64,000 nucleotides of DNA from NCBI GenBank assembly GCA_044870765.1, contig JBIOZG010000012.1, forward strand, positions 32,001 to 96,000. The letters are read 5' to 3'. How positions within the stretch are numbered: position 1 is the stretch's first letter; each line of letters begins with the position of its first letter. This DNA is from Nitrososphaeraceae archaeon. Its GTDB lineage: Archaea > Thermoproteota > Nitrososphaeria > Nitrososphaerales > Nitrososphaeraceae. Of the stretch, positions 60,588 to 64,000 are shown in pieces. The notes below the pieces were generated by a model. The model made no database searches. It was not told where the DNA came from and was given only the letters and a program-made list of their open reading frames with translations. A program made the position numbers and the translations under genes.

Positions 60588-61805
60588 ATGAGGGTCAAAA
60601 TTCCTACAATTCATGGTAATCACACAGGCCTTAATGCGATGATAATTTTAGATGATGGTTCAACGTATCGAGGTACAGGATTTGGCTATCCAAAAACAGT
60701 TGGCGGAGAATTTGTTTTTAATACAGGCATGGTAGGATATACCGAGACATTAACCGACCCATCATATAGAGGACAAATATTGTGTATGACATATCCGCTT
60801 ATTGGAAACTATGGTGTACCAAGTAAATCTATCAAGGATGGGTATGGACTGCCAAAATATTTCGAGTCAGATAACATTCAAGTTTCAGGGCTGGTAGTTC
60901 ACGAATTGTCTAACGTAGCGAATCATAGAGAATGCCACAAAACTTTAGATCAATGGCTTTATGATGAAAAAATACCAGGTATTAGTGGAATTGATACACG
61001 TGATCTAACCAAGAAAATTAGAATAAAGGGAGTAATGAACGGTGCTCTTTCAGTTTCAGAAAAACAAATAAATACAAAAACCCTATTGGATACCGTAAAA
61101 AAGACCAGATATGATGGAATTAATTTTATGTCCCAAGTGTCTGTTGACAAGACTATCGAATATGGAGACCGTTCATTAGAACCAATAGTATTAATTGATA
61201 CAGGTACGAAATATAGCATTATACGTAATATTTTACGAATGGGTTATCGGGTTATTCGCGTTCCATGGGATATATCATTTAGCGAGATAATTTCTCATAA
61301 ACCTAAAGGTATCATAATAAGTAACGGTCCTGGAGATCCGAAAATGTGCGATATTACAATAGAAACTGCACTTAAATTGTTTGATTCATCATTGCCAATG
61401 TTGGGAATATGCCTGGGAAACCAAATTATGGCACTTGCAGCCGGAGGTGATACATATAAGTTGAAGTTTGGTCATAGAGGTCAGAATAAAGGATGCACGG
61501 ATGTCAGCACCAATCAGACATTTATTACGAGCCAGAATCACGGATATGGGGTGAAATCAAATACTTTGGACAAAACCGGATTTAAAGTATGGTATATAAA
61601 TTCTGATGACAATACTATAGAAGGTATCAAACATAAATCAAAACCTATAATTGCAGTGCAGTTTCATCCTGAAGCTTCTCCCGGTCCTTATGATTGTGTG
61701 CACATATTCAATAGTTTTAAAGACCTTATTGAACAGAAGAATTCTAACCAAAGTCGACTCAAATCTGTAAAGAAAATGGAGGTGGGAAAATTTTCCAAAG
61801 AATGA
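60588..61805 (+). CDS. carA: Carbamoyl-phosphate synthase small subunit
   Basis: GEFVFNTGMVGY.ETLTDPSY.GQI, SNGPGDP, GICLGNQ, FGHRG.N, SQNHG, QFHPEASPGP. Confidence 0.97.
   Translation: MRVKIPTIHGNHTGLNAMIILDDGSTYRGTGFGYPKTVGGEFVFNTGMVGYTETLTDPSYRGQILCMTYPLIGNYGVPSKSIKDGYGLPKYFESDNIQVSGLVVHELSNVANHRECHKTLDQWLYDEKIPGISGIDTRDLTKKIRIKGVMNGALSVSEKQINTKTLLDTVKKTRYDGINFMSQVSVDKTIEYGDRSLEPIVLIDTGTKYSIIRNILRMGYRVIRVPWDISFSEIISHKPKGIIISNGPGDPKMCDITIETALKLFDSSLPMLGICLGNQIMALAAGGDTYKLKFGHRGQNKGCTDVSTNQTFITSQNHGYGVKSNTLDKTGFKVWYINSDDNTIEGIKHKSKPIIAVQFHPEASPGPYDCVHIFNSFKDLIEQKNSNQSRLKSVKKMEVGKFSKE
61778..61784 (+). promoter_or_regulatory. Shine-Dalgarno sequence for carB
   Basis: GGAGGTG ending 7 nt before the TTT-CCA-AAG that aligns with CarB M-P-K. 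Confidence 0.65.
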
Positions 61806-64000
61806 AACTATAAAGAAAGCATTAGTACTGGGCAGTGGAGCAATAAAAATCGGAGAAGCAGGCGAATGTCAGAAGTTCTGACCGCCAATTTGACTATTCC
61901 GGTTCACAATGCCTCAAAGCCTTATCCGAAGAAGGAATCAAGACAGTACTGGTAAATCCCAACATAGCTACTATTCAAACGGACACTAGATTCGCAAATA
62001 AGGTATATCTGTTACCAGTTAATGTATATTATATACAACAAATAATAGAAAAGGAACTTCCGGATTCAATTATGCTTGGTTTTGGTGGTCAAACTGCATT
62101 AAATTGTGGAGTGTCTTTGCACGATGATGGGATCCTAGATAAGTACAAGATACGAGTGTTGGGAACTCCCGTGAATAGCATAAAGATAACCGAAGATAGA
62201 GAACAGTTTAAAACTGCTATGATAAAGAGTAACGTTCCTGTACTAGAGAGCGCACCGGCTTATAATTTGGAAGAGGCGCTAGGAGTCGCTGGCAAGATAG
62301 GGTATCCGGTAATAATAAGGGTAGCGTACACTCTTGGTGGTAAAGGGGGAGGAGTTGCGCATAACGAATACGAATTGCAAGAAATAGTGCAACGAGGACT
62401 TTCTTTAAGTCTAGTAAATCAAGTCCTTATTGAGAAATATATTGGGAGTTGGAAACAGATAGAATATGAAATGATGAGAGACTCAACAGGCAACACCATT
62501 GCAATTTGTAATATGGAAAACGTTTTAGGAATGAGGGTACATACAGGAGACAATATTGTAATTGCGCCATCGCAGACTATCAATAATGAAGAATATCATA
62601 GATTACGTTCTGCAGCCATTAGAGCAGTGGAATATTGCGGTATAATAGGAGAATGCAATATTCAGTTTGGTCTGGATCCCTTAAGTGAATCCTATTGTGC
62701 AATAGAAATAAATGCCAGGCTTTCAAGGTCCTCGGCTTTGGCGAGCAAGGCGACAGGGTATCCATTGGCATACATGGCAGCAAAAATGGGCCTGGGTTAC
62801 TCTCTTACAGAACTTGTTAATAGTATAACTAAGGCTACCACAGCATGCTTTGAACCTTCTTTGGATTATGTGGTGCTAAAAATGCCTAGATGGGATTTCA
62901 GGAAATTTGAATTGGTTAACAGAAGGATTGGTACTAGTATGAAGTCAGTAGGCGAAGTAATGGCAATCGGTAGAACCTTTGAGGAAGTTCTACAAAAAGC
63001 TATTAGAATGAACGATGGCGGAAAAATAGGTTTGGTTGGAAACGAAGAAAATTCAAAGGAAGAATTAGAATTAGTTGAACAAAAATTGCTGTATCCAAGT
63101 GATGAAATCTTATTCGATGTTGTTAGGGCAATGAGATTGGGAATTCCCGTAACTCGAATTAGTAAACTTTCCACAATAGATTCATGGTTCTTGGAAAAAA
63201 TCAAAAATATTGTGGAGTTATACGATAAATTACATCTGGTAGATGTGTCTGAGATTTCTGAGAATTTATTGCGAGAGGCGAAAAAATATGGATTTTCCGA
63301 TTTACAAATAGGTAAGTGTTTAGGCTTGAAAGAGTTAAGTGCAAGAAAATTGAGACAAAAGTTTGGTATCAATCCAGTCGTAAAGCAGATAGATACTCTA
63401 GCTGCAGAATGGCCTGCGAAAACCAATTACCTGTATTTGACATATGGGGGAGACAAAGATGATATTGTTTTTAGGAAAGAGAAAAATTCCGTAATTGTAC
63501 TTGGTGCAGGACCTTACAGGATAGGTAGTAGTGTAGAGTTTGATTGGGGTACAGTCAACATGGTGTGGGGTCTAAAGAATAATGGCATAAAATCTGTATC
63601 AGTTATTAACTGTAATCCAGAGACAGTGTCTACTGATTACGATATATCCGATAGATTATATTTTGAAGAATTATCATTAGAAAGGATTCTAGATATATAT
63701 GAAAAAGAACGACCAAAGGGAATAGTCACATGTGTTGGAGGTCAGACAGCAAATAATCTTGTTCCTAAATTAGGACAACTAAATATAAACATTATTGGTA
63801 CTGATAGTGTCCATACTGATATGGCCGAAGACAGAGAAAAGTTTAGCAAGTTACTTGACTCATTAAATATAAAACAGCCTCCTTGGAATAAATTTACAGA
63901 TTTAAGTGGAGCAAAGATTTTTTCTCAAAAGGTCGGTTTCCCTGTGTTAGTAAGACCTTCATACGTACTGAGTGGTGCGGCTATGAAGGTGATTTGGAAT
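61792..64000 (+). CDS. carB: Carbamoyl-phosphate synthase large subunit, 5' part, in two segments (61792-61866 and 61889->64000)
   Basis: Segment 1 (F)PKNETIKKALVLGSGAIKIGEAGE; segment 2 FDYSGSQCLKALSEEG...NPNIATIQTD...GGQTALN...TEDR...YTLGGKGGG...GSSVEFDW...RPSYVLSG, apparently open to the window edge. Confidence 0.93.
61867..61888 (+). other. Candidate bulge-helix-bulge pre-mRNA intron, 22 nt (TGTCAGAAGTTCTGACCGCCAA)
   Basis: Central helix GGCG(61861-64)/CGCC(61883-86), 3-nt bulges AAT(61865-67) and AAT(61887-89), inner hairpin GTCAGA-AGT-TCTGAC; removal gives GGC GAA TTT GAC = G-E-F-D. Confidence 0.85.

Follow-up and report, generated by a model that had tools for sequence, protein, structure and literature searches.

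How does an archaeon express a gene whose reading frame is closed by a stop codon almost as soon as it has opened? The question is raised by carB, the gene for carbamoyl-phosphate synthase, in a 64,000-nucleotide (nt) stretch of a Nitrososphaeraceae archaeon genome (assembly GCA_044870765.1, contig JBIOZG010000012.1, positions 32,001 to 96,000), which we call the window and in whose own coordinates, all on the + strand, the features below are given. An initial annotation, made without database searches, had pointed out that the conserved CarB motif GEAGE-FDYSG is split here by 22 nt and had read those 22 nt as a bulge-helix-bulge (BHB) intron, to be removed by the tRNA splicing machinery. We are now confident that the 22 nt at 61867-61888 are a BHB (tRNA-type) intron in the carB pre-mRNA, an interpretation supported by the fold, by covariation and distribution among homologues, by one RNA contig and by the enzyme genes of the same genome.

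The extent of the interruption follows from the reading frames and from comparison with orthologues. The frame of exon 1 reads ...KKALVLGSGAIKIGEAGE through 61866 and then, unspliced, C-Q-K-F before a TGA at 61879-81, just as first read; the frame from 61889 reads FDYSGSQCLKALSEEG... and is open as far as the window end. Intron-less orthologues run uninterrupted as ...IKIGEAGEFDYSGSQ..., and since they are continuous over the site, what is extra in the window is exactly the 22 nt between 61867 and 61888. Because exon 1 and the insert both end in AA, the deletion can be placed in three ways, and the alternative coordinates 61865-86 or 61866-87 give an identical product. Alignment to the intron-less orthologues places exon 1 at 61792..61866, with 25 codons, (F)PKNETIKKALVLGSGAIKIGEAGE, and the junction peptide predicted from splicing is IGEAGEFDYSGSQCLK. 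Exon 2 (61889..64000, continuing past the window end) has 1057 codons in the genome, and its product of 1057 amino acids (aa) matches the Pfam families CPSase_L_D2 (E 5e-103, two stretches), CPSase_L_D1 (two stretches), CPSase_L_D3 and MGS. The duplicated preATP-grasp and ATP-grasp units, the oligomerisation domain and the MGS-like domain of CarB are therefore all in place, and carA lies directly upstream.

In the RNA, the sequence around the insert forms the elements of a BHB motif, all of which the initial annotation had named and all of which are present in sequence and fold. Exonic GGCG (61861..61864) and intronic CGCC (61883..61886) make a 4-base-pair (bp) central helix, recognised from the sequence and its homologues, from the fold for the first strand and from covariation for the second. 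This helix lies between two AAU bulges on opposite strands (61865..61867 and 61887..61889), and an inner, intron-intron hairpin, GUCAGA-AGU-UCUGAC, occupies 61868..61882 with strands at 61868-73 and 61877-82, as given by fold and covariation. The outer, exon-exon helix had been called weaker and imperfect; it is instead long and evolutionarily constrained. Its 5' strand spans 61848..61860 and its 3' strand 61891..61904, with 61848-55 pairing with 61897-904 (8 bp) and 61857-60 with 61891-95 (4 bp), both strands being marked out by the fold, by pairing statistics and by frozen synonymous sites. The geometry is that of the canonical pre-tRNA motif: exon 1 supplies the 5' strand of the central helix, and the bulge on the 3' side adjoins the exon-exon helix. 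All of these elements appear in the minimum-free-energy structure for 61840-61912, which has -23.1 kcal/mol, compared with a mean of -12.8 kcal/mol (standard deviation 2.7) for shuffled sequences (z = -3.8), and none of 200 shuffles was equally stable. A search of 61600-62100 against Rfam retrieved no relevant family, only one sub-threshold Enterococcus small RNA (E = 0.12).

The archaeal splicing endonuclease EndA cuts after the second base of each BHB bulge, and RtcB ligates the ends. Applied here, this rule predicts cuts at 61866/61867 and 61888/61889, the former of which also fits the RNA contig described below. Removing 61867-88 yields GGC GAA UUU GAC and restores GEAGE-FDYSG as in the intron-less orthologues, so that the in-frame G-E-F-D junction first deduced from the rule is the one that nature uses where no intron is present.

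We then compared the site among relatives, taking feature statistics from 95 unique insert-bearing sequences; this set, like the same-genus counts below, includes the unpublished genomes G020 and G034, on neither of which any claim rests. The inserts are 17-52 nt long, and their lengths leave remainders of 1, 0 and 2 modulo 3 in 52, 22 and 21 sequences, respectively. Each of the 22 inserts with a length divisible by 3 contains an in-frame stop. Read without splicing, 94 of 99 sequences meet a stop within the insert, and the remainder do so within 24 codons. With lengths in all three classes and stops throughout, no frameshift or read-through fits all of the sequences, whereas removal does: cuts placed by the EndA rule give an in-frame junction at each length from 17 to 52 nt.

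The motif itself is kept while its letters change. The 5' bulge is AAA in 72 of the 95 sequences, AGA in 13, AAU in nine and AGU in one, and the 3' bulge is AAU in 63, AUU in 19, AGU in 12 and GUU in one. Pairs 2 to 4 of the central helix are standard in every sequence (pair 2: GC 84, GU 11; pair 3: CG 92, UA 2, UG 1; pair 4: GC 95), and pair 1 is GC in 41 and GU in 33. The inner helix has at least four uninterrupted pairs in 90 of 95, and its sequence varies with pairing kept, as in GUCUC/GAGAC, GUCUG/CAGAC, GCCAG/CUGGC and GUUAG/CUAAC. In an alignment of 93 distinct sequences, compensatory change is found at five of the six inner-helix pairs, and 94.5% of pair cells are paired, against 19-45% when the partners are slid by 1-3 columns. 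Cells with a double change number 117, against 47.5 (standard deviation 5.0) in 500 shuffles, none of which reached that figure; as the 93 sequences are related, this is not a probability, and it is the slid controls and the variety of pair types that are independent of kinship. The outer helix is 97% paired at columns 6-13/85-92 and 92% paired at columns 15-18/79-83. The initial annotation had looked to relatives for insertions at the same site with the structure intact; such insertions are found, and the BHB motif has been kept through both compensatory and length changes. The three longest inserts (L129, L134 and L140, 48-52 nt) have very A/T-rich expanded loops with no open reading frame (ORF), and they keep the hairpin base and central helix, except for a weak hairpin base in L134.

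Every same-genus genome with a readable site carries the insert (33 of 33, with 22 nt in 25 and 34-35 nt in eight); three more genomes, in which the site is unreadable, stand outside this count. Among parsed records of the family (Nitrososphaeraceae, Nitrososphaera, Nitrosocosmicus and Nitrosopolaris, with two further records outside the count), 74 of 78 have the insert and the four without it are Nitrososphaera. In other families of the order, nine of 23 genomes have it and 14 read straight through. One other family, here f13, was sampled more deeply: 71 genomes of about 1.1-1.9 Mb, many of them complete, were searched, four gave no match, and of the 67 with a readable site 57 carry an insert of 20-22 nt and ten carry none. 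When 401 genomes from across the phylum were screened with a strict pattern, 36 showed the insert, every one of them in family f1 or f13; this pattern requires exact GEAGE and FDY(S)G, and its silence elsewhere is not evidence of absence.

In a tree of f13 built from the first 190 residues of exon 2, the deep branches are all insert-bearing and the ten intron-less genomes fall in about three places, one of them a clade of seven that includes G103. In a larger tree the state of the insert changes at least six times, and the hairpin sequences are specific to lineages. The intron is old, common to at least two large families of the order, and has been lost several times. The pattern points to vertical inheritance of an old intron with repeated loss, perhaps sometimes through replacement by an intron-less allele. 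The CarB N-terminal region of G103 (L177) groups with an intron-less clade of other genera (Shimodaira-Hasegawa-like approximate likelihood-ratio test, 92 and 80) and not with its two insert-bearing congeners G286 and G262 (L178 and L179); this grouping would fit loss of the intron by replacement with a foreign intron-less allele. A difference within a genus is also seen outside the two large families, in genus g10, where G045 (L055) has a 22-nt insert and G060 (L056) has none.

If the exons must pair for the intron to be removed, the structure should leave a mark on the coding sequence as well. Across families, insert-bearing genes use GGC for the Gly of the central helix in 92 of 95 sequences, and in the outer helix ATC for Ile in 82, GGA for Gly in 90 and TCC for Ser in 75 of 95. 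In contrast, the 14 intron-less sequences use all synonyms at the pairing sites, and the neighbouring Ala, Lys and Ser codons are free to vary even where the insert is present. The same contrast appears inside f13, which removes most of the lineage confound: insert-bearing genes there have ATC in 56 of 56, GGA in 55 of 56, GGC in 56 of 56 and TCC in 52 of 56, whereas the ten intron-less genomes use ATT, ATA and ATC, all four Gly codons, and TCA, TCG and TCT. The third positions of the bulge-adjacent Ala and Phe codons co-vary (A-U 34, G-C 16, G-U 13, other 30). Paired synonymous sites are thus held fixed in insert-bearing genes alone, which shows that an RNA structure constrains the coding sequence on both sides of the intron.

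The genome also encodes candidate enzymes for the task. Two EndA-family genes lie above the Pfam cut-off (PF01974, 101 and 86 bits), together with one RtcB gene (PF01139, 586 bits), and intron-bearing tRNA genes are predicted. The 199-aa EndA aligns end to end with the Sulfolobus tokodaii, Aeropyrum pernix and Pyrobaculum aerophilum chains in the PDB (E 7e-43 to 5e-33). The 198-aa EndA-like product is divergent and, in the best alignment, has Gln at the position of a His that we take to be catalytic. To judge from these alignments, the two genes would form a two-subunit arrangement of a crenarchaeal-type catalytic subunit and a second EndA-like subunit, an arrangement that the title of one paper reportedly ties to splicing of the cbf5 mRNA. 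We also considered deriving a BHB consensus from the predicted tRNA introns, for which the boundaries given by ARAGORN proved too imprecise.

In the account that we favour, the I-G-E-A-G-E codons of exon 1 pair with the F-D-Y-S-G codons of exon 2, exonic GGCG pairs with intronic CGCC, and the middle of the intron folds into its hairpin, leaving two 3-nt bulges four base pairs apart. A splicing endonuclease, probably a heterotetramer of catalytic and structural subunits, would cut after the second base of each bulge, leaving 2',3'-cyclic phosphate and 5'-OH ends, and RtcB would join the exons into GGC GAA UUU GAC, restoring GEAGE-FDYSG; the excised 22-mer would probably be circularised. In this scheme we infer the acting enzymes, the chemistry of the cuts, the circularisation and any regulatory use, the last of which, the switch suggested in the initial annotation, is hypothetical. 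The 96.65%-complete genome contains no second carB: the sole further match lies on a different contig, in an open frame of 510 aa, is 26% identical and is not carB. Unspliced RNA can yield only a peptide of about 29 residues. As there is only this carB, and as its unspliced frame meets a stop, arginine and pyrimidine synthesis depends on the tRNA-splicing enzymes, as had been suggested from the start.

Parts of the window are contained in 14 RNA-labelled sequencing runs, four of which (X1-X4) we compared with it. In X3, a soil metatranscriptome, a 388-nt contig covers 61590-61999 with 10 mismatches, making it about 97% identical to the window, and precisely the predicted 22 nt are missing from it at the site. 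X3 has no further contig there, and the depth of this one is about 5. A molecule with the predicted junction is present in an RNA library, as splicing predicts, and this is thin support for the spliced junction. No other indel is listed across carA-carB in the RNA contigs, the A4T4 run near the start of carB included. X4 has no cover at the intron site. X1 and X2 are two soil libraries, labelled as oligo-dT RNA, of one study other than that of X3; they cover carA-carB (60588-64000) evenly and in the unspliced form only. Their contigs may be unspliced precursor RNA or contaminating DNA, and we considered and set aside reading them as regulation of splicing or as its absence.

Several of our observations weigh against this account, and each is best judged beside the alternative that it would favour. 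Some concern the motif itself. In 21 of the 95 sequences a G-A mismatch takes the place of the outermost central-helix pair, and the 3' bulge has three or four nucleotides depending on the register of the outer helix, four in the best register, so that the motif is of a relaxed kind in part of the family. Such departures from the strict form are what one would expect if the insert were taken out of the RNA by something other than EndA and RtcB, be it another nuclease with a ligase or self-cleavage. We regard this as improbable, though it survives better than any other alternative. In its architecture and in the cut sites that it implies, the motif matches EndA substrates; inserts of 17-52 nt fall far short of the size of a group I or group II ribozyme; and the genome encodes the crenarchaeal-type EndA pair and RtcB. 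According to the available part of one source, endonucleases of the (alpha-beta)2 type cleave non-canonical introns (PMC5829648).

Other points concern the RNA. The direct support is one assembled contig, at a depth of about 5 and from one study, and assembled contigs show neither strand nor abundance. The contigs of X1 (record 4) and X2 (record 12) retain the 22 nt, with the deletion at 0 against depths of 5.5 and 72.4, respectively. It is conceivable that a close relative has an intron-less DNA allele, and RNA libraries can contain DNA; the X3 contig might then be DNA of an intron-less strain, with the insert-bearing copies expressed in some other way. The existence of intron-less alleles in 14 of the 23 genomes from other families, four of the 78 records and ten of the 67 f13 genomes lends this some colour. 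Nevertheless, we think it very unlikely, given that the contig is so close to the window, that none of the 33 readable same-genus genomes, including those 73-100% identical to it in protein, is without the insert, and that the deletion is base-exact at the predicted cuts.

Less likely still is translational bypass, in which the ribosome would hop over the insert and the mRNA would remain uncut. In phage T4 gene 60 the ribosome skips a 50-nt gap between matched take-off and landing codons while the RNA stays intact, and carB resembles gene 60 in having a short, stop-containing gap inside an essential coding sequence, with the stop codon shortly past the take-off site and a hairpin within the gap. 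The matched codons of gene 60 are nevertheless absent in carB, where take-off would have to occur at GAA and the last letters of the insert before UUU are ...CGCCAA (CGC CAA or C GCC AA). Moreover, what is conserved is the pairing between exon and insert and the two bulges, not codon identity, and a contig without the 22 nt is present in an RNA library. Finally, the in-frame stop after codon 25 and the lack of a canonical start codon might suggest that carB is decaying into a pseudogene, or that the insert arose as an error of sequencing or assembly. Both readings can be dismissed almost entirely, with the same site interrupted in several hundred independent assemblies, exon 2 open for 1057 codons with all CarB domains, the first 200 residues of CarB stop-free and 73-100% identical within the genus, and no second carB to replace it.

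The remaining point against a BHB intron as a full account is that carB lacks a canonical start codon, a second unexplained oddity in its expression. The carB frame contains no ATG, GTG or TTG from its TAA at 61768-70 up to the intron. Where aligned orthologues have their ATG, TTG or GTG start, the window has TTT (61792..61794), followed by Pro and Lys codons, and we presume this TTT to be a non-canonical start. A Shine-Dalgarno-like GGAGGTG (61778..61784) lies 7 nt upstream of it, and a GGAGG-like run at this spacing is always kept in relatives. The longest ORF of carB with an ATG, GTG or TTG start begins at 62072, 61 codons inside exon 2, which fits the earlier expectation that gene callers would truncate the gene or call it a pseudogene.

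We tabulated the start position, taken as the codon 25 before the end of exon 1, over 161 unique loci (L004-L140 and L164-L229). Insert-bearing genes (147) have a canonical start in 42 cases and a non-canonical one in 105, including CTG (45), TTT (27), TCG (13), ATT (7), GCG (5) and a few ATA, CTA, TTA and GTA, whereas the 14 intron-less genes have a canonical start in 13 cases and CTG in one. On the tree, the association between intron and non-canonical start amounts to two independent contrasts on supported branches and six on all branches, in the same direction; with only two to six contrasts, no significance can be claimed for it. There are exceptions: three intron-bearing clades have ATG, and that one intron-less genome has CTG. 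The alignments make the link suggestive but unproven, and simple linkage over 75 nt would also explain it. Two general explanations for the missing start were tried and rejected. Fusion of CarA and CarB by a +1 frameshift or read-through fails in lineages where carA and carB are divided by two in-frame stops, and C-to-U editing would make starts from UCG, GCG and ACG but not from UUU, UUA or CUG. Some lineages have no canonical start nearby in any frame.

The gene upstream, carA, was called as an ORF at 60588..61805 and encodes the glutamine amidotransferase small subunit (Pfam CPSase_sm_chain and GATase). It is directly upstream of carB, with a gap of at most 362 nt, in 127 of 131 loci, the other four being cut by contig ends. 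In the window its TGA (61803-05) is out of frame with carB and lies 9 nt past the presumed start of that gene; carA extends 14 nt beyond this start, with the TGA inside the Asn-Glu codons of carB (AATGAA). The same overlap was seen in the insert-bearing f13 genomes inspected, whereas in the intron-less genomes inspected with them carA stops short of the start of carB.

It is possible, though we consider it rather unlikely, that intron and missing start codon have evolved together in ammonia-oxidising archaea as a single module for expressing carB. The part of the BHB motif in exon 1, 54-75 nt from the start, would have to pair with exon 2; a ribosome that set off too soon would undo this pairing and produce only a useless peptide. 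Where the intron is retained, lineages may then have drifted to, or been selected for, very weak starts (CUG, UUU, UCG, GCG, AUU, AUA). Alternatively, the intron and the start oddity may be the scar of a lost cassette of homing endonuclease plus intron at the carA/carB junction. We found no match in the genome to the homing endonuclease family PF14528, a search that did not extend to other LAGLIDADG Pfam families or to the region downstream of carB. The carB intron looks to stand alone and to be inherited vertically, and if a cassette brought it, the endonuclease would be long gone in the order.

The initial annotation had also suggested scanning the genome for other frame-restoring BHB motifs. 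Such a scan gave 55,180 structural candidates, 2,019 of them passing loose open-frame criteria, which is too many to carry meaning. Four passed a strict version, and the two of these with long flanking frames are adjacent gene pairs, which we named by eye from their translations: a hemC-like gene with a uroporphyrinogen methyltransferase-like one, and an IPP isomerase-like gene with a prenyl synthase-like one. The scan recovers carB but gives no credible further intron among the strict candidates with long frames, and introns near gene ends are beyond its power to exclude.

In Archaea, splicing of protein-coding genes counts as a curiosity. The known case is cbf5, whose pre-mRNA was reportedly described as carrying a BHB intron by Watanabe in 2002 and Yoshinari in 2006. 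Our search of the literature on archaeal introns and splicing endonucleases, whose coverage left out most subscription journals, gave cbf5 as the only spliced archaeal mRNA and found the carB intron undescribed. The available part of Yokobori 2009 (PMC2738675) states that splicing has been confirmed for no archaeal mRNA except cbf5, and it reports the cbf5 intron in Desulfurococcales and Sulfolobales and none in Nitrosopumilus and Cenarchaeum. The part available of a 2025 endonuclease paper likewise cites, for mRNA, the cbf5 papers only. The carB intron resembles that of cbf5 in being a BHB intron in a pre-mRNA; the cbf5 intron, too, is reported to be patchily distributed, with gains or losses among relatives (PMC2738675, available part). 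It differs in that its host gene encodes a metabolic enzyme rather than an RNA-modification enzyme, in that its hosts are mesophilic ammonia oxidisers (Nitrososphaerales), and in lying 25 codons from the start of a gene that often has a non-canonical start codon.

Other systems are useful for comparison. With BHB introns of pre-tRNA and pre-rRNA the carB intron shares the two 3-nt bulges, the 4-bp helix, the flanking helices and the implied cut after the second bulge base, and the same enzymes are presumed to act on it. In contrast to those substrates, the carB substrate is an mRNA, in which splicing competes with translation and failure leads to a truncated peptide and not to a defective RNA. 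HAC1 and XBP1 are spliced by IRE1 together with a tRNA ligase, which in animals is RtcB, and their splicing acts as a proven stress switch. Like the proposed carB splicing, it uses a protein-only endonuclease and a ligase to remove a short mRNA intron and alter the reading frame; the endonuclease and the stem-loop motifs are different ones, and it is there that regulation is proven. The parts available of the relevant sources cover the enzymes acting on pre-tRNA and pre-rRNA (PMC7714728, PMC5829648) and mention unconventional splicing of the HAC1/XBP1 type (PMC13149111, PMC8718801).

What is new here is the extent of the intron across ammonia oxidisers, the constraint on the exons, the RNA contig and the start-codon anomaly. 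The carB insert is a genuine tRNA-type intron, conserved and situated in the mRNA of an essential gene of metabolism, and the contig gives the first evidence from RNA that it is removed. For annotation, gene callers that accept only ATG, GTG or TTG and are blind to introns truncate carB or flag it as defective, which can create a false appearance of arginine or pyrimidine auxotrophy. An intron together with a non-canonical start could hide carB from annotation, and a genomic survey that, in its available part, reports carB among Nitrosocaldaceae only in 'Ca. Nitrosothermus' (PMC7819960) merits re-examination in that light. If the co-evolved module is true, tRNA-splicing capacity would limit how much CarB, and hence arginine and pyrimidine, the cell can make. 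The intron is conserved over soil and many marine ammonia oxidisers, which drive global nitrification and several of which are in culture, and archaeal mRNA splicing thereby becomes testable in mesophiles.

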